Shown here: piece by piece, positions 11,966 to 46,933 of the stretch
How positions within the stretch are numbered: the stretch's first letter is position 1
How the letters are laid out: each line of letters starts with the position of its first letter
Source of the DNA: Methanomassiliicoccaceae archaeon
GTDB taxonomy: Archaea; Thermoplasmatota; Thermoplasmata; Methanomassiliicoccales; UBA472
DNA: 64,000 nt
Assembly: GCA_963806355.1 (NCBI GenBank)
Contig: CAWDXN010000005.1
Coordinates: 57,980 to 121,979, forward strand
Direction of reading: 5' to 3'
Notes under the pieces: generated by a model
Databases searched by the model: none
What the model was told of the DNA's origin: nothing
What the model saw: the letters and a program-made list of their open reading frames with translations, nothing else
Translations under genes and position numbers: made by a program

Positions 11966-11981
11966 GATATCAGCAATGATA
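11966..11981. promoter_or_regulatory. Palindromic operator TATCA-GCAA-TGATA, 14 nt upstream of a TATA-like box (TTAATAA 11996-12002) of the FN3 gene
   Basis: GATATCAGCAATGATA, identical to 22665-22680. Confidence 0.65.
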
Positions 11982-38290: not shown

Positions 38291-38371
38291 TCCTGACACC
38301 ATTCGACCGTGTCTATAACAGACAAGCTCACCGCTATCCCTTCATCGATCATGACCTTTTTTCTCGGTCTG

Positions 38372-38950
38372 TCACATCGATGCGGTCAAAGGGCGGCCGG
38401 GATGCTGCCCTCCAGTTATCTGCCCTTGCGACATTGCCTCGCCCTGTCCGGATCGCTGGGCTTCCTTGACCGTGCTCTCGTCCAGCTGCATCTTGGGGAA
38501 CACCGCCCATAACCGGTCCAGGTCCTTCTGCTCCAGGGTGAGGGGGTCGATGCCGATGTACATCACCCCACCGTTCACCTTCAGAGCCTGGTTGATCTCC
38601 TCGAGTGTGGCGAGCAATTTGCGCATGTCATTCCAGAGCAGGAGGTATTCCAGACCGTCCAGGAAGAATATCACCTTCCGGTCCTTCGCCTCCAGCTTGA
38701 CCGCCTTCGACAGTGCGGTCAAGGTCTTGGGAGAGATCACGTTGTCCCCTTTGCTTCCGCTGAGCCAGTAGTACTTGGGCGATAAAAGACCGAACTTCTC
38801 CATCACGTACTCTGGATGCAACCGGGTTATGCAGACACCGGGGGTGCCATCGGCGATCATGCTGGCAAAGGAACTGAAACCGAGCCGAGGAAAACCCTCG
38901 ACCAGCATGACCACGTTCATATTGGCATCCTCAGGAGACATAACGTACAC
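38372..38950 (-). CDS. DUF835-like protein, divergent from STAND regulator
   Basis: CITRLHPE, YWLS, ISPKTL, FLDGLEYLLLWND, IDPLTL. Confidence 0.8.
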   Translation of the reverse strand: MYVMSPEDANMNVVMLVEGFPRLGFSSFASMIADGTPGVCITRLHPEYVMEKFGLLSPKYYWLSGSKGDNVISPKTLTALSKAVKLEAKDRKVIFFLDGLEYLLLWNDMRKLLATLEEINQALKVNGGVMYIGIDPLTLEQKDLDRLWAVFPKMQLDESTVKEAQRSGQGEAMSQGQITGGQHPGRPLTASM

Positions 38951-39029
38951 TCTGCTAGCACATACCCTTTCATTTTCGTGATATAAAAACTGATTTTGAG
39001 CATGCTCATTTTGAAATGAGAGTCTATCT

Positions 39030-39043
39030 TATCCTCAAAGATA
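39030..39043. promoter_or_regulatory. TATC-N6-GATA site in divergent promoter of DUF835 gene and STAND regulator
   Basis: TATCCTCAAAGATA; a second palindrome CTCAT-N6-ATGAG at 39005-39020. Confidence 0.5.
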
Positions 39044-39089
39044 ATAATTTGAAGGGAATTATTTTTATTCAAGAAAACAATCTTAGTCC

Positions 39090-41780
39090 GTGAACCGAGC
39101 CGCCCGGAAGTCATTATTGACTGCCCGGGAGAGGGTGCTACTGCACCTACTGTCCTACCAGAGGTACAGTCAGGACGCTGATGCCCCCAAAGCCGTTATT
39201 CAAGAGGGAATAGCGGATGCGGTTGAGGTCGGTCGCAACAATGTCGCCAAGATCTTGAACGAGATGGCCAACGAGCGCATCGTCGATATCCTTTCCAAGC
39301 ATGTCAAGGGCCTTCCGAGCGTCCGCCGGGTCTATTTCCTTTCCACCAAGGGCTTCGATGAGGCCAAGCATCTCAAGGAGGACCTCGAGGCGATGAAGGT
39401 CGAGGTCATCGACCTTAAGGGGGACGTGCACCAGGACGAAGTAGGTCGCCTTTCCGTCTATATGCCCGGCAATTACACCTTCCTGGAAATAATCATGGGC
39501 GTTGCCAGGGGTAAGTTCGATTGCCGATCCTTCCACGAGTCCAAGACCAAAGAGGAGAGGCGTTTCGTTGACTTCACCGACAAAAAGCCGGCGGTCCGAT
39601 CCTTCTTCGGCAGAGAAAAGGAATACCGTCAGCTGATGGACCTGATCAACGGTGAGAGCACCCGGGCCATCATAATCTATGGAATCCCAGGGATCGGGAA
39701 GACCACATTACTGGCGAAGTTCGCCCAAGATGTCCGAGAACAGACCAACGTGTTCTGGCTTAAGATTCACGAATGGGTCAACGTGCGAGGCCTGCTGCGA
39801 CCGCTGGCGGAGTTCCTCTCCCAACTGGGAAAGAAGAACCTGGAATGGTACCTCAATCAGAACGAGACCCCTCACACTGGTGAGGTCTTGCAGATCCTGA
39901 TCACGGACATGGGGGACATCCCGGTCCTGCTCATATTCGACGATGTGCACAAGGGCGAGCGCCTGGTGCTGGATTTCCTCAACGCGCTTATCAACATGAT
40001 CGAGGAGCTGCCCAAGGTCAGGGTGGTCTGCGCCACCAGGGAGGTCCCGGCCTTCTATTCTCGAAGCCTGGTCATCCGGAACCTGATCAGGGAGATGCAG
40101 ATGGAGGGATTGGACAGGGAGAGCAGCCTGAGGATGCTGAGGGCCCGTTCCATGCCCGAGGGCGACATAGAGCAGGTCATCCAGATCACGAAGGGGCATC
40201 CTTTGTTCCTCGAGCTCATCGAGGAGCCTCAATCGGCATTGGGGAAGAACATCCGCATGTTCATCGATCAGGAGGTGGTCTCCAAACTGGATGTGGCGGA
40301 GAAGCGCATCATGAACGTGGCATCGGTGTTCCGTTACCCGGTCATCATGGACGCCTTTTTCATCACCGAGGAGGAGATCCGCAAGGACCTCAACGGAAAG
40401 GAGATCGAGCTCCAGGACATCGATTACACCGTCTCGTATGAGACGGTCGACTCTCTGATTTCCAAATCCATCCTCCATGAGTCCATCGGGCGCATGATAG
40501 GCATGCACGACCTACTTCGTGAGTTCACTTATTCGCGATTGACGCCTAGGCAGAGAATGATCTACCATCGGGCCGCTTCAAAGTTCTATATCCAGGACTC
40601 CTCGCACTCATCCAAGGTGGAGGCTTTGTACCATTGTATCATGGCAAAGGACCTAGAGAAGGCAGTGGAGGTGGCGGCAGGGAGTGGCCAGGAGATCATC
40701 TCCAAGGGATACGCCATGCAATTCGACCCCTTGCTCAGCCGATTGCTGGTGGAGACAAAAGGTCAGGCGAACCGGGACCGAATGGAGCTGCTCATGTTGC
40801 ACGCCCAGATCCTGGAGCTGCATGGTGAGTACGAAAGGGCGGTGGAAGAGCTCGCCGAGATGCTAGAGGACCTGCCTGTCGACAAGGGCTCCCGTCTCAA
40901 GGCCGAGGTGCACAGGAGGCTGGGAGTGCTGGAGATGAAGCGCAACCTGTACGATAGCTCATCTCAACACTTGGCAGATGCGTCCAGCATAGCCAATGAC
41001 ATCCGGGACTCCCAGACCCTGGCGGACATATACTATGACACCGGGGGTTTGCTGGAGCGGCGCGGTAAGTTCGACGAGGCCGTGCAGAACTTCGAGGCGG
41101 CAGGAGACTTCGCTCGGGGCGTAGGGGATAAGATCGCCTTAGGAAGGTCCCTATATGGTCTGGGCAGGGTCAAGGCAAGTTTGTTGGAATACACAGAAGC
41201 GGTGCGATTGAAGAAGGAGGCCCTTAACATCCTCGAGCGCACCGGCGATGTGAACATGACCTCCAAGGTATGCATCGGCATCGGCAATGACATGCGCTCC
41301 ATCAAGCAGGGCGATGAAGGTTTGAAATATCTGGAAAGGGCGGTCGACCTGGCCACCTCGGTTGGCGACATCAACACATTGGCCTATGCGCTATCGAACC
41401 AGGCGGCGGAGTACCTGGCGAGGAACGACCTGGCCAAAGCGGACGAGCTATTGCATGAGGCCACCAAGCTTTTCATCAAGCTCAACGACCAGGTGATGAT
41501 ATCGAACATGCACTTCTATCGTGGCTTCCTCTACAATATGAGAGGCGATTGGGAATGGGCCAAGGAGGAGTTCAAGCTCAGCATTGACACCTTAAGAGGG
41601 TTCGACATACCCTCGAGGTTGGCGCTATGGCTGCTTGAGATCGCCTCGGTCTACATGGAGAACAACGAGAAGGAAGAGGCCATGAAACTTTACGAAGAGG
41701 CCTATTCCGTCGCTTCGCGCATCGGTCACGAGAGGATCATGCGGGATGCAAAGGAAAGCATGGCTAAGATCATGGCCTGA
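39090..41780 (+). CDS. wHTH - STAND NTPase (NB-ARC/MalT-like) - TPR transcriptional regulator
   Basis: N-terminal winged helix (QEGIADAVEVGRNNV...RRVYFLSTKG); FFGREKE, GIPGIGKTT, LIFDDVH, GHPL, MHDLLR; C-terminal TPR-like helical repeats; intact 896-aa ORF. Confidence 0.88.
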   Translation: MNRAARKSLLTARERVLLHLLSYQRYSQDADAPKAVIQEGIADAVEVGRNNVAKILNEMANERIVDILSKHVKGLPSVRRVYFLSTKGFDEAKHLKEDLEAMKVEVIDLKGDVHQDEVGRLSVYMPGNYTFLEIIMGVARGKFDCRSFHESKTKEERRFVDFTDKKPAVRSFFGREKEYRQLMDLINGESTRAIIIYGIPGIGKTTLLAKFAQDVREQTNVFWLKIHEWVNVRGLLRPLAEFLSQLGKKNLEWYLNQNETPHTGEVLQILITDMGDIPVLLIFDDVHKGERLVLDFLNALINMIEELPKVRVVCATREVPAFYSRSLVIRNLIREMQMEGLDRESSLRMLRARSMPEGDIEQVIQITKGHPLFLELIEEPQSALGKNIRMFIDQEVVSKLDVAEKRIMNVASVFRYPVIMDAFFITEEEIRKDLNGKEIELQDIDYTVSYETVDSLISKSILHESIGRMIGMHDLLREFTYSRLTPRQRMIYHRAASKFYIQDSSHSSKVEALYHCIMAKDLEKAVEVAAGSGQEIISKGYAMQFDPLLSRLLVETKGQANRDRMELLMLHAQILELHGEYERAVEELAEMLEDLPVDKGSRLKAEVHRRLGVLEMKRNLYDSSSQHLADASSIANDIRDSQTLADIYYDTGGLLERRGKFDEAVQNFEAAGDFARGVGDKIALGRSLYGLGRVKASLLEYTEAVRLKKEALNILERTGDVNMTSKVCIGIGNDMRSIKQGDEGLKYLERAVDLATSVGDINTLAYALSNQAAEYLARNDLAKADELLHEATKLFIKLNDQVMISNMHFYRGFLYNMRGDWEWAKEEFKLSIDTLRGFDIPSRLALWLLEIASVYMENNEKEEAMKLYEEAYSVASRIGHERIMRDAKESMAKIMA

Positions 41781-41843
41781 TCTTTTTTATAAAAAATAAG
41801 TAAGGCGTTTGAAAACAGTTTGGGAAGGAAAGATCTGCAACCC

Positions 41844-42260
41844 TTAGTGGGGATCCACGCCAGGGATCACATGCGGGTCGACACCGGGGATGACGTGTGG
41901 GTCAACACCAGGGATCACATGCGGGTCCACGCCAGGAATCACATGTGGGTCTACGCCCGGGATGGCATGCGGATCCACGCCAGGGATCACATGAGGGTCC
42001 ACGCCAGGTATCACATGTGGATCGACACCGGGGATGACGTGTGGGTCAACACCAGGGATCACATGCGGGTCTACGCCAGGAATAGCATGCGGATCGACAC
42101 CGGGGATGACGTGTGGGTCAACACCAGGGATCACATGCGGGTCCACGCCCGGGATGGCAAGGGCTGCCACACCTAGGAAGGAGCCCACCATCACAAGGCA
42201 CGCAAGCACGGCGACTACGCCGATCAATACGGCCATGATTTTCTTTGTTGCCTTCTGCAT
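41844..42260 (-). CDS. Secreted tandem-repeat peptide precursor: signal peptide + 13 x [V/A]IPGVDPH
   Basis: GGTGA SD before ATG 42260; basic n-region, hydrophobic h-region, A-L-A cleavage motif; repeat variation almost all synonymous in this frame. Confidence 0.88.
   Translation of the reverse strand: MQKATKKIMAVLIGVVAVLACLVMVGSFLGVAALAIPGVDPHVIPGVDPHVIPGVDPHAIPGVDPHVIPGVDPHVIPGVDPHVIPGVDPHVIPGVDPHAIPGVDPHVIPGVDPHVIPGVDPHVIPGVDPHVIPGVDPH
41847..42158 (-). repeat. 13 x 24-bp coding tandem repeat
   Basis: 312 nt = 13 exact-length units; third-position variation only, apart from V/A at one position. Confidence 0.95.
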
Positions 42261-42297
42261 CAACTTCACCTGCACCAAATTATTATGCAAACCTGTT

Positions 42298-42478
42298 TAT
42301 CATTGTTGATATTAAAAGCGTCTTTGAGCATGCTACACTAAACATTAAATATCAGTAATGATAAAAATCTTTCTATATTATTGAATGTTTATAATCTGTG
42401 ATAACGTGTCCAGATTTGAATGATTTATCAGATTTGATAATTAATAGTATTTATATTGAAATACTATCCGAATCGATA
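42298..42478. promoter_or_regulatory. Cluster of five TATC-N6-GATA-type palindromes upstream of the peptide gene
   Basis: 42298 TATCATTGTTGATA, 42350 TATCAGTAATGATA, 42390 TATAATCTGTGATA (1 mismatch), 42426 TATCAGATTTGATA, 42465 TATCCGAATCGATA. Confidence 0.75.
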
Positions 42479-42532
42479 AAAATCGTCCGGTCTATGATTT
42501 TTTATTAATTCGAACGTTCCTCACGTTATCAA

Positions 42533-43224
42533 ATGAGTGAAAGAAGGGAAGGACTGACGAAGCTCGGGATCGTGTTCGATCTAGACGGGACCTTGATCGA
42601 AAGCACTATCGACTTCGGGCTCATGAGAGATCGTGTCTTCAGATATCTGATCGATATTGGTTTGGGATACGTTCTGGAGCGATCGGACACTATCGCCAAC
42701 AACATGGACCGGGTGCGGCAAGAGATCCGCGATATGAATCTAGACCTCAAGACCGTCGAGACGAGCGTCGAGGCCATCTGCGTCGAGGTGGAGATGATGT
42801 CCGTGGATTACACGAAGGAAGTGCCTGGGGCAGGCGATGCATTGAGAACGCTTCGCGTCATGGGGATATCCGCTGGCATTGTTGACCCGAGGGTCCCGGA
42901 ATTATGCCACGCATGCTCTTCGCGCATCAAATCTTACAGGATTGCTGGACGCCATCATCTGCCGGGACGACTACGACCGTCTCAGAGGCGAAACCTCACC
43001 CGGAGGCCATGCGCCGGGCCGCCGCCGCCCTGAACCTGCGACCGGAGCAATGCATCTTGGTCGGGGATCATTTGATGGACCTGGAATGTGCCCTTTCGGC
43101 CGGCTCGATGTTCGTGGCGGTCCTGAGCGGACATAATGGTCGGAAGGGTTGGGAGGATCTGGGTGTGGAAAGGATGATCCCATCCATCGCCCAACTGCCG
43201 AGATATCTCGAGGAGATGACATGA
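42533..43224 (+). CDS. HAD-superfamily hydrolase (phosphoglycolate phosphatase-like); frameshifted
   Basis: VFDLDGTL, TR, KPHPE, VGDHLMD. Confidence 0.88.
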
Positions 43225-43276
43225 GGAACGTCTTCACTCCACCAACTATATCCCACTGACGTGGGATTCGGGAACC

Positions 43277-43657
43277 ATGAGGTCCATTGTAAAGAGCGAG
43301 GATGCGCCGGAACCGATCGGTCCCTATTCCCAGGCCGTCATCTCGGACCAACTGGTGTTCTGCTCAGGCCAGTTAGGTGTCGACCCTCGAACTGGAAGGA
43401 TGGTCGATGGCGGGACTGCCGCGGAGGCCCGACGTTGCCTCGAAAACCTCAAGGCCATACTGGAGCAGGCGGGGACAGACCTCACGAAAGTGCTGCGATG
43501 CACCATCTTCATGACCGACCTGATGGACTTCCAGGCCTTGAACTCGGTCTATGCGGAGTTCTTCTCGGCGTCGCCACCTGCCAGGACCACCGTTCAAGTG
43601 GCGGCGTTGCCCAGAGGGGCTAAGGTGGAGATCGATGCGATCGCGTCCCTGACCTGA
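43277..43657 (+). CDS. ridA: RidA/YjgF/UK114 enamine deaminase
   Basis: APEPIGPYSQA, SGQLG, PPARTTVQVAALP, VEIDAIA. Confidence 0.93.
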   Translation: MRSIVKSEDAPEPIGPYSQAVISDQLVFCSGQLGVDPRTGRMVDGGTAAEARRCLENLKAILEQAGTDLTKVLRCTIFMTDLMDFQALNSVYAEFFSASPPARTTVQVAALPRGAKVEIDAIASLT

Positions 43658-44272
43658 TCAGGCCTTGGCATTCACAGAATCGGCCTTGATGCCGTCGTAC
43701 TTGACCTCGAATCCCTTTTGGCAGACGGGACAACAGACGTAATACTCGCGGTCGTCCTTCTTGACCTTGTAAGCGTTGTCGTGGATCTCCTTCTTACAGT
43801 AGTTGCAGGTCAGCACCACAGAGGACTCTGGGGTGACGGTGGCCCTCTGGTTCTCCTTGACCACGGTGACGATGTTCGCAATGTCGAACTCGATGATCTC
43901 ATGGATGTCGGCCATCTTGGAAAGGAAATCGTTGATGAGGTGCTGGTGGTGGAAGGTGCACATGAGCATCAGCTTGCCGCTGCTGAGCATGAATATCTGC
44001 CTCACGCTCTCGTTCTCCTGGAACTGCTCCGCCACCTTCTTGATGTCAACTGGCTTGGTCTTGATGCTCAGGACAACGCTGATCCCTCCCAGTTTCTCTG
44101 GGTCGAGGGTGGCGGTGTAACCCTTTATGATGCCCATGTTCTCCATCGAGCCGACCTTGCTGCTGACCGTGGGAACGCTGACCTTCACCCTGTCCGCGAT
44201 CTGACGGAAGGATAGGCGACCGTTCTCCTGAAGGACCTTCAGGATCCTAACGTCGGTATTGTCCAGTTTCAT
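43658..44272 (-). CDS. Lrp/AsnC-type HTH regulator with C-terminal TRASH domain (archaeal CopR/CopT-like)
   Basis: LDNTDVRILKVLQENGRLSF HTH; CNYC...YYVCCPVC; divergent from copA. Confidence 0.88.
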   Translation of the reverse strand: MKLDNTDVRILKVLQENGRLSFRQIADRVKVSVPTVSSKVGSMENMGIIKGYTATLDPEKLGGISVVLSIKTKPVDIKKVAEQFQENESVRQIFMLSSGKLMLMCTFHHQHLINDFLSKMADIHEIIEFDIANIVTVVKENQRATVTPESSVVLTCNYCKKEIHDNAYKVKKDDREYYVCCPVCQKGFEVKYDGIKADSVNAKA

Positions 44273-44429
44273 ATGGAAAAGGGGAATTAAACAATCATTA
44301 ATAAAGATATCCGTTAAACGAACAAACTAGTCGAGGTTAACATGACGTTAAGAATGCAAAATACTCGTAACTATTCTTTGCATTCGTTGATAGACATGTA
44401 GATGAACCAAGAGCATGGATGTGGTGTAG

Positions 44430-46933
44430 ATGAGCGACGCAAAGGACGGAGGGTCCGACCGACCGAAACTGGAGTCCAAAGGAAAGAGGACGGCAAGCTT
44501 CGGGGTCACCGGTATGACCTGTGCCACCTGTGCTCAGACCATCACTGAATCGCTGCAGGGATTGGAGGGGGTGGAAGGGGCGAGCGTCAACCTTGCCACC
44601 GAGAAGGCCACTGTGGTCTACGACCCTGAGAAGGTGACCATGGAGAAAATGGCCTCCGCCATAGACCAGGCTGGATATGGGGTCATAGTTAACCAGGTCA
44701 CCATCGCCGTCGGGGGCATGACCTGCTCCTCCTGCGTTCTTTCTGTGGAGGAATCCTTGCTATCATTACCTGGCGTTCTTTCCGCCTCTGTGAACCTTGC
44801 CACCGAGAAGGTGACGGTGAGGTACGATCCACAGCAGGTACGCCTCCCTCAGATCAAGCAGGCCATCAAGGACGCTGGATACGATGTGCTCGAGGCGCAG
44901 ACGGTGGATGCGGAGAAGGAGCTTCGGGCTGAGGAGACGGCCCGCCAGAAACGATTGCTGGTCTTCGCTTGGACGCTCGCATTGCCGGTATTCGTCATAA
45001 TGATGCTGATGACGTTCACCACATTGGGCGATGAGCCCTTCCTGATGGACTATGGCAATTACATCCTGTTCCTGCTCACCACGCCGATCCAGTTCGTCGC
45101 CGGTTACCGATTCTACATCGGCGGTTACAAATCCTTGCGCAATGGCGTGGCCAACATGGACGTGCTGGTGGCGGTGGGCACCTCAGCGGCCTATTTCTAT
45201 TCGGTGGCAGTGACGTTCTTTCCCGACGCCTTCCCCTTCACATGATGTCTACTATGACAGCGCCGCCCTCATCATCGCGATAGTGCTGTTAGGCAAGTAC
45301 ATCGAGGCCAGGGCCAAGTCCCGCACCTCCGATTCCATACGAAAGCTGATCGACCTGCAGGCCAAGAGCGCCACCATAGTGCGTGAAGGCAAGGAGGTGA
45401 CCGTTCCTGTGGATGAGCTGGATGTCAATGATGTCATGGTCGTCCGACCGGGGGAGAAGGTCCCCACCGATGGCGTGGTGATCGAGGGCGAATCGGAGGT
45501 GGATGAGTCCCTGATCACCGGAGAGAGCCTGCCAGTGCACAAGGGGGAGGGCTCATCTGTGGTGGGAGGTTCCATCAACAGCAATGGATTGCTCAAGGTC
45601 AGGGCCACCCGGGTGGGGGCCGACACCGCTCTGGCCCAGATCATCCGTCTCGTGGAGGAGGCCCAGGTGTCCAAGGCCCCCATCCAACGCATGGCCGATC
45701 GGGTGGCCTCGGTCTTCGTGCCCATCGTCATCACCATCGCTGTCTCTGCCTTCCTCTTCTGGTACTTTTTTGGGGCCTCGTATTACGGGGTGGACCAGGT
45801 CTTCCCGTTCTCATTGTCGGTGTTCATCGCCGTGCTGGTCATCGCCTGCCCCTGCGCCCTTGGCCTGGCCACACCGACCGCCATCATGGTAGGGACGGGA
45901 AAGGGCGCGGAACTGGGCATATTGATCAAGAACGGGCAGGCATTGGAGATAGCCGGTAAGGTCGGGGTCATGGTCTTCGACAAGACCGGTACCTTGACCC
46001 AGGGCAGACTTGAGGTGACCGATATCGTTGCCATCGGAATCGCCGAGGAGGATCTGCTGCGAACCGCTGGTGCGGCCGAGAAAGGGTCGGAGCATCCCAT
46101 CGCCAAGGCCATCGTCAGGAAGGCCGAGGAGAATGTCCGAACTGCCGGAGGTGGGTCAGTTCGAGAACGTGCCTGGCAAAGGCATTTCGGCCCATATCGA
46201 GGGCAGGTGGGTACTGGTAGGGTCGAGGAGGATCATGCAGGATAACTCGGTGGACCTTGCTCCGGTCGAATCGCACATCGCTCGCTTGGAAGACCTTGGA
46301 CGGACCACTCTGGTGGTGGCCCAGGAAGGAGTGGCGGTCGGTGTGCTCGGGGTCTCGGATGTGGTGAAGGATTCCGCCCTGGTGGCGTTGAACGAGCTGA
46401 AGCGCATGGGGATCGAGGTGGTCATGATGACCGGCGACAACCGGCGGACCGCTGACGTCATCGCCAAGCAGCTCGGCATAGACCGAGTGCTGGCCGAGGT
46501 GCTTCCCGGTCAGAAGGCGGAGCAGGTGGCCGCCCTTCAGAAGGAAGGCAAGGTGGTGGCCATGGTCGGGGACGGGGTCAACGACGCCCCTGCCCTGGCC
46601 CAGGCCGACCTTGGCATCGCGGTGGGCTCTGGCACCGATGTGGCCATAGAGACCGGGGACATCGTCCTGATAAGGAACGACCTGAGGGACGTCGTGGCAG
46701 CGATCCAGCTGAGCGCAAGGACCTCAGTGAAGATCCGGCAGAACCTGTTCTGGGCCTTCGCTTTCAACACCATCGGGATACCGGTGGCCGCAGGTATTCT
46801 ATATCCCAGTTTTCAATTGTTGTTACCGCCCGCGCTGGCGGCAGGGGCGATGGCTCTGAGCTCAGTCACCGTCGTCACCAACGCCGCTCTGTTGCGGACG
46901 TATGTGCCTGAGATCATCAGGGAGAGGGAGTGA
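44430..46933 (+). CDS. copA: Cu(+)-translocating P1B-type ATPase; frameshifts near 45240 and 46135
   Basis: GMTCATC and GMTCSSC metal-binding domains, TGES, CPCALG, DKTGT, SEHP, GDGVNDAP, MALSS. Confidence 0.95.

Follow-up and report, generated by a model that had tools for sequence, protein, structure and literature searches.

Gene organization around the array

The window analyzed here, a 64,000-nucleotide stretch of DNA from a Methanomassiliicoccaceae archaeon, contains a gene cassette composed of a DUF835 gene on the minus strand, a wHTH-STAND-TPR gene on the plus strand, a convergent peptide precursor gene on the minus strand and a divergent HAD gene on the plus strand. The host is a methanogen, as it encodes McrC. 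The wHTH-STAND-TPR gene (positions 39090–41780, plus strand) encodes a PH0952-like NTPase of 896 amino acids (hereafter referred to as the STAND), which has Pfam NB-ARC, AAA_16 and TPR matches and gave a profile match to PDB 6MFV (PH0952) with an E value of 1.6e-43. Its NB-ARC/AAA_16 domain lies at about residues 170–377, and its DNA-binding domain is N-terminal. Most rows of close STAND orthologues were from Methanomassiliicoccales.

The peptide precursor gene (41844–42260, minus strand) encodes 138 amino acids, comprising a basic/hydrophobic leader and 13 copies of IPGVDPH. The STAND and peptide genes stay together across the order, with a repeat core that varies (IPGTDPH, LPGVGPH, IPFIDPH, IPVSDPH, IPGNSPH and others). 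No hydrophobic leader was seen in the precursors of genus g4 (loci L008, L009 and L010; LPGVGP repeats), which speaks against export by the Sec route in this lineage. The DUF835 gene (38372–38950, minus strand; Pfam PF05763) is KaiC-like; DUF835 has been described as an inactivated KaiC (PMC5847659). The HAD hydrolase gene (42533–43224, plus strand) is split over two frames in the assembly and forms a single frame of 229 amino acids in genome G002. Many other genes of the window, including those for asparaginase, ribonucleotide reductase and surface proteins, are also split over frames, probably by assembly indel errors.

Contigs of three of four RNA runs covered the peptide gene and those of all four covered the DUF835 gene, with small shares (0.05–0.08) and in a form that is not proof of transcription. 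The contigs of three studies ended at 42264–42269 and none covered 42282–42643; such contigs cannot show start sites. Rfam gave no match in 38300–44500, and a sigma-70 promoter scan, which uses a model unsuited to archaea, stayed at the chance level. Further downstream (43658–46933), a gene for an AsnC-type HTH-TRASH regulator is divergent from an ATPase-like gene, which we take to be of the heavy-metal P-type; the two look like a copper module unrelated to the array described below.

Five TATC-N6-GATA palindromes between the peptide and HAD genes

The sequence-only reading of this DNA had placed five sites in front of the peptide gene, starting at 42298, 42350, 42390, 42426 and 42465, and our re-reading reproduced these positions and their spacings of 52, 40, 36 and 39 nt. 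The repeated unit is a 14-bp palindrome, TATC-N6-GATA, to which no strand is assigned; four sites are exact and the one at 42390 has a single mismatch (TATA for TATC). The likely minus-strand TATA box of the peptide gene, TTTTAATA, is present at 42317–42310 as had been stated, and the first site overlaps it by 2 nt.

Four genomes of the genus were compared. Site 1 (42298–42311), which covers the 3′ end of the peptide TATA box, site 2 (42350–42363) and site 5 (42465–42478) were exact in all four. Site 4 (42426–42439), exact here, was exact in two of the four, and site 3 (42390–42403) was exact in none, being degenerate in all the genus relatives. As the mean column identity of this comparison was 93%, the invariance of sites 1, 2 and 5 is weak evidence. 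These three sites are also aligned in helical phase (0, 4.95 and 15.9 turns), sites 3 and 4 being out of phase. Outside the genus, only site 5 had a counterpart, in locus L007, near the HAD start and with its place relative to that start retained.

Exact matches to TATC-N6-GATA numbered 11 in the window, against 0.48 expected. We then subjected the intergenic stretch (276 nt, 72% AT) to 3000 dinucleotide shuffles. In no shuffle did TATC-N6-GATA itself occur twice; none of the 3000 contained four copies of a 4+4 palindrome class having G or C in the half-site, and 11 contained four copies of some class when AT-only classes were also counted. At the level of sequence, these results confirm that the five repeats are real palindromic DNA sites.

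Distribution of the motif and its likely targets

To follow the motif across genomes, we used the N7 spacer as the control; a reversed-pattern control was dropped as unfair. Over 41 genomes of the order, TTATC-N6-GATAA was found 257 times as compared with 55 for its N7 form, and N6 exceeded N7 in 33 of the 41, kin genomes not being independent of each other in these motif counts or in the locus counts given below. The genome-wide N6 count of genome G000, 28, was not above those of other spacers (9–34); an N6 excess appeared there in AT-rich context only (14 versus 0–9). We set aside recurrent TGAGCATGCTCA matches that lie within a coding region (G000 C6:31574), taking them to be a coding artefact.

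Archaellin-like genes had an exact upstream site in 13 of 28 cases, five of which were genus orthologues, as compared with 0–3 for the controls. By inspection, the other likely targets are secreted or surface proteins, and sites are also scattered before and behind unrelated genes. In the window, further exact sites start at 11968, 17879, 22667, 28378 and 28485. For the one at 11968, 14 nt separate its end from a TATA-like octamer that lies upstream of a gene for a fibronectin-III protein, and two window sites stand before a large DUF7507/DUF11 surface gene. Site 22667 lies in a convergent gap, its end 14 nt ahead of TTTATAAA, and the listed ORFs include none of at least 120 amino acids on the plus strand directly behind it; from its position, it could possibly serve a small or antisense RNA. 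Archaellin-like genes of different genera (L187, L199, L202, L203, L206 and L207) share a common leader in the last 70 nt before the start, a possible RNA element.

Candidate binding proteins of TATC-N6-GATA

Three regulator candidates with sites in G000 were examined: mreA, an ArsR PF09824 regulator gene and a tandem wHTH gene pair. The pair consists of two small ArsR-like wHTH genes that follow a gene for a GvpD/KaiC-like ATPase (G000 C8:62337–63077), with the recognition helix IPIA-x-x-YRR; it has no family in NCBIfam and no structure in PDB. We examined 30 wHTH-pair loci, in which the upstream gene was found in 22 and no upstream paralogue in eight. In 17 of the 22, the 130 nt in front of the first wHTH gene contained an exact site, with varied spacer sequences, and the N4, N5, N7 and N8 controls all gave 0/22. 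At these 17 promoters the gap from site to TATA was 16 nt in 14, 15 nt in two and 19 nt in one. In the window genus the site before the pair carries one mismatch (4/4), and in genus g5 a site lies just behind the TATA of the second wHTH gene as well (3/3).

The wHTH family was not found in any of 12 genomes of family f7, in which N6 and N7 were level (27 versus 26). Upstream of wHTH-family genes of distant Thermoplasmatota, exact sites were seen in 3 of 26 cases and sites within one mismatch in 12 of 26 (controls 3–7). The signal outside the order was weak, with N6 versus N7 counts of 151 versus 114 in 26 genomes having the wHTH family and 294 versus 275 in 81 without it. The conserved site before the pair indicates regulation of the pair, not necessarily autoregulation. 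On the strength of these associations, the ArsR-like wHTH pair is our best candidate for the binder of TATC-N6-GATA, one that we favor by a little.

MreA is represented by a single orthologue (NCBIfam NF053756; 130.8 bits, cut-off 100). With MreA as the binder, or another global or chromatin-like factor, the two-regulator layout proposed below would be kept and the array would mark a coated, silenced AT-rich region instead of a place of discrete repression. MreA was found in 36 of the 41 genomes of the order and in none of three f7 genomes, the same distribution inside the order as that of the wHTH family; it binds several sites per probe (PMC3419521), and an exact site lies upstream of mreA in the window genus. 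The scatter of sites before and behind unrelated genes would also suit such a factor. However, an exact upstream site was present at only 5 of 30 mreA loci, four of them in the window genus, so that autoregulation of mreA through the motif is not supported. Moreover, an exact site stands at 15 nt before a wHTH-family gene in G133, a genome without MreA over the cut-off. The available text of PMC3419521 gives no MreA motif, which counts against this assignment; together with the shared distribution, it also keeps MreA as the main rival binder, although we consider this possibility rather unlikely. The ArsR PF09824 regulator was rejected: a single locus of 24 had the exact core, and all 41 of the 41 genomes, those of f7 among them, had the gene. 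As a separate observation, a CCAG direct repeat with copies about 11 nt apart recurs across families 60–130 nt upstream of mreA (L061–L087), representing a third motif.

A different palindrome accompanies the STAND gene

The array had been read as a MalT-like activating array of the STAND, which would oligomerise on the five sites and activate the peptide gene cooperatively. STANDs multimerise on activation (PMC6468293), a MalT promoter carries four sites (PMC10427625), sites 1, 2 and 5 are in helical phase, and a sixth TATC-N6-GATA site (39030–39043, no strand), which is genus-specific, stands in the promoter region of the STAND gene itself. The latter ends 18 nt before a possible STAND TATA box (39062–39069) and, given this position, might either activate or repress the STAND gene.

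Despite these features, the motif was nearly absent from the orthologous loci, in which the STAND wHTH is conserved. An exact TATC-N6-GATA was found upstream of the STAND gene in 3 of 52 loci, all three with at least 97% protein identity to the window STAND. A peptide gene was called in 36 of the 52 loci (many of the 16 without a call are shortened sequences), and three of these 36 had any exact site at the peptide promoter, two being from the window genus. Five of the six site-bearing peptide or STAND promoters came from the same genus, and an earlier, overlapping set of loci outside the genus had given 1/20 and 0/19. Conversely, the motif was enriched in genomes without the STAND: TTATC-N6-GATAA was found 113 times versus 20 for N7 in the 14 genomes that had no STAND match of near-full length (completeness below 85% in three). 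One of the 14, the 95% complete G014, had 28 N6 and one N7. In addition, site 1 lies on and downstream of the peptide TATA box, and none of the five sites has the spacing of 15–16 nt before a TATA that is typical of the motif at other promoters. The locus distribution and the presence of the motif in STAND-less genomes led us to reject the STAND as the binder of the array, and we regard cooperative activation by it from these sites as improbable. By these counts, TATC-N6-GATA is an order-wide motif and the five-site array is genus-specific.

The palindrome that does co-occur with the STAND is a different one. A central box, GTAGCATGCTCAA (42324–42336, minus strand), with the core AGCATGCT at 42327–42334 and its center at 42330.5, lies between sites 1 and 2. 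Its second copy in the cassette, TTGAGCATGCTCA (38996–39008, no strand; core at 38999–39006), lies between the DUF835 and STAND genes and likely targets the DUF835 gene, whose likely TATA box (38982–38989, minus strand) is 9 nt away. The core was exact upstream of 50 of the 52 STAND orthologues and within one mismatch upstream of all 52. It was also exact in 32 of the 36 called peptide promoters, one of the four non-matches being a variant box. Upstream of distant STAND paralogues, by comparison, it was found at 1 of 24 loci. The consensus of the 52 box contexts has a TATA-like octamer 9 nt after the AGCATGCT box, with one per flank at the peptide side. The wHTH residues G48, R49, N50 and N51 were invariant in 19 of 19 aligned STAND orthologues. 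This co-occurrence suggests that the central box is likely the operator of the wHTH-STAND-TPR protein.

Several other boxes were seen. Genome G026, which lacks the STAND and peptide genes, has a single hybrid box (L037:2282) that joins a peptide-side left flank, with a mirrored TATA and an epimerase-like gene, to a DUF835-side right flank, as expected from a deletion between two direct-repeat boxes. Variant boxes in L048 (G021) and L050 (G008) differ in their central bases; the STAND of G008 is split and no peptide gene was seen there. A third conserved box with mirrored TATA boxes (L038:1773, L039:1745, L040:1774, L041:1759; G000 C1:24034) precedes a gene pair, presumably P-loop kinase-like and phosphatidyltransferase-like. 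An archaellin-like gene in L188 (genome G032) has a STAND box that is followed, after 9 nt, by a TATA; the box lies about 170 nt upstream of the match at 481, and the STAND regulon of G032 may include a surface filament.

Geometry of the two-way promoter

The peptide TATA box (likely; 42310–42317, minus strand) lies 9 nt from the central box, the spacing at which the consensus of box contexts shows its octamer. On the other side, also at 9 nt, a likely mirrored TATA box, ATTAAATA (42344–42351, plus strand), faces the HAD gene; as judged from 16 sequences read in the HAD sense, it is TTTAWATA consensus-like in relatives. This mirrored TATA, both copies of the AGCATGCT core and the sixth TATC-N6-GATA site had gone unnoticed in the sequence-only reading. 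The elements form a mirror-symmetric unit of 66 bp, in the order site 1, minus-strand TATA, 9 nt, AGCATGCT, 9 nt, plus-strand TATA and site 2, in which the centers of sites 1 and 2 are equidistant from that of the central box, at 26 bp on either side. Sites 1 and 2 each overlap the 3′ end of their TATA box by 2 nt. The TATC halves of these sites share bases with the TATA boxes, and in some relatives the same place has TATC but lacks GATA; this makes it easier for sites 1 and 2 to have arisen.

In archaea, a regulator that binds within a promoter or downstream of it represses (PMC5937170, PMC4158304), and the activator position described for TFB-RF1 is a palindrome just upstream of BRE/TATA (PMC5937170). 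By this analogy, the overlap of sites 1 and 2 with the TATA boxes likely places them in a repressor position. The proposal of the sequence-only reading that the sites could affect both the peptide and the divergent HAD genes gains support from their conservation and position.

It is also conceivable that the sites are mainly for the HAD-RidA side, or activate transcription, and that they hardly affect the peptide gene. Site 5, for which alone a counterpart was seen outside the genus, at an unchanged place with respect to the HAD start, has its end about 20 nt ahead of a possible but weak HAD-proximal TATA (42499–42508, plus strand; about 25 nt before the HAD ATG), assigned from sequence only. 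However, no TATA lies at 14–17 nt from any of the five sites on either strand, and site 1, exact in four of four genomes, overlaps the TATA of the peptide gene, making a HAD-centered or activating role improbable. The least credible account is that the array arose in an AT-rich intergenic stretch by chance or neutrally, since, for all the decay of sites 3 and 4 within the genus and the closeness of the genus sequences, no shuffle reached four copies and the motif elsewhere is spacer-specific in its enrichment and fixed in its geometry.

Discussion

The array sites are likely real operators that were misassigned to the STAND in the earlier reading. We propose, with a probability of roughly 60%, that the five palindromes are operators of a global, dimeric winged-helix regulator, which in the window genus would repress a STAND-activated two-way promoter. 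The STAND wHTH would bind the central box just upstream of BRE on both sides and recruit TFB/TBP to the peptide, HAD-side and DUF835 promoters; that the STAND acts through this box on all three is likely, judging from the distribution of the box. The TATC-N6-GATA factor would activate when its site ends 15–16 nt before a TATA and would block TBP/TFB when its site overlaps one. Occupation of sites 1 and 2 would then shut both directions, with sites 3–5 as auxiliary sites that add affinity or serve the HAD gene, to which site 5 would be tied. We think that this position-dependent scheme, with its division of labor among the sites, is the probable one. As a result, peptide output would be gated, an active STAND and a release from the global factor both being needed; the same factor would also mark the promoters of archaellin-like and other surface proteins.

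MalT boxes are asymmetric, whereas the five sites here are palindromes and do not track the STAND. The likeness to MalT of E. coli lies in the use of a STAND NTPase with a TPR sensor as a transcription factor and in the several sites per promoter (PMC10427625). The locus does encode a STAND transcription factor having a NOD, a TPR sensor and a DNA-binding domain. On the other hand, the wHTH is N-terminal, one likely box is present per promoter, and the array sites neither co-occur with the STAND nor stand upstream of the core promoter as activation would require. A closer relative is PH0952 of Pyrococcus horikoshii (PDB 6MFV), which has the same archaeal wHTH-NOD-TPR architecture and is predicted to act as a transcription factor, its N-terminal domain being ArsR-like (PMC6468293). 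The available text of that paper does not name an operator or inducer for PH0952, whereas the STAND gene of the window is linked both to a candidate operator and to a gene for a candidate peptide ligand.

The TATC-N6-GATA palindrome shares its outer TATC and GATA bases with the TGM of TrmBL1/Tgr in Thermococcales (TATCAC-N5-GTGATA), a global regulator that activates from upstream of BRE/TATA and represses from downstream (PMC4158304). Nevertheless, the spacer here is 6 rather than 9, and surface and signalling genes, not those for sugars, seem to be the targets. Membership in the TGM regulon was ruled out by the spacer, the N9 form not being enriched (2 versus 14 for N6, in AT-rich context). 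The AGCATGCT box resembles the element of TFB-RF1 (PF1088) in being a palindrome that stands at a fixed distance just upstream of BRE/TATA (PMC5937170), and differs from it in motif and protein and in that one box serves two mirrored TATA boxes. As found for archaeal dual activator/repressor operators, the TATC-N6-GATA half-sites are conserved around a free spacer at 17 of 22 wHTH-pair promoters and at archaellin-like promoters, the distance to TATA is fixed (16 nt in 14 of 17), and sites 1 and 2 overlap TATA boxes. By analogy, the promoter likely works as a TrmBL1/Tgr-type dual regulator acting over a TFB-RF1-type activated promoter.

In RRNPP quorum sensing (PlcR/PapR, NprR/NprX), an HTH-TPR regulator is encoded next to a small peptide gene. 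The cassette resembles these systems in that an HTH and TPR regulator gene adjoins a small, exported-looking peptide gene, that the likely box of the regulator stands in the peptide promoter, so that the two genes have a common putative operator, and that the peptide variants are lineage-specific. It differs in its archaeal host, in the STAND NTPase between HTH and TPR, from which RRNPP regulators are free, and in the up to 13 peptide copies per precursor. The linkage of the genes, the TPR sensor and the self-activating layout point to the processed peptide as a possible inducer of the STAND. Tentatively, and with less confidence than in the promoter scheme itself, the cassette may be an archaeal peptide quorum-sensing loop under the veto of a second global regulon. 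A PH0952-class STAND would sense a lineage-specific IPxxxPH heptapeptide, bind GTAGCATGCTCAA and turn on its own signal gene together with DUF835 and the divergent operon, to which some genomes would add an archaellin-like gene; in the window genus, the TATC-N6-GATA regulon, represented by the ArsR-like wHTH pair beside a KaiC-like ATPase, would exert the veto by covering both TATA boxes.

A string search for TATC-N6-GATA in the accessible literature returned only papers on RhpR of Pseudomonas syringae, a bacterial two-component regulator that has the same string in an inverted repeat; no link to the archaeal motif is implied. Among the papers listed from the accessible literature, in which TATC-N6-GATA was the motif looked for as a string, no archaeal account of either motif or of the cassette was found.

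On its own, the array is an unremarkable addition at the level of one genus. Tracing it led to two operator motifs, for each of which there are now exact coordinates and a candidate protein. Of these, the AGCATGCT box is a candidate target promoter element for a PH0952-class STAND and makes an archaeal peptide-receptor loop directly testable. TATC-N6-GATA, for its part, outlines an order-wide methanogen regulon that would include archaellin-like and other surface genes. In the scheme proposed here, one lineage would have recruited this global regulator onto a local signalling circuit.
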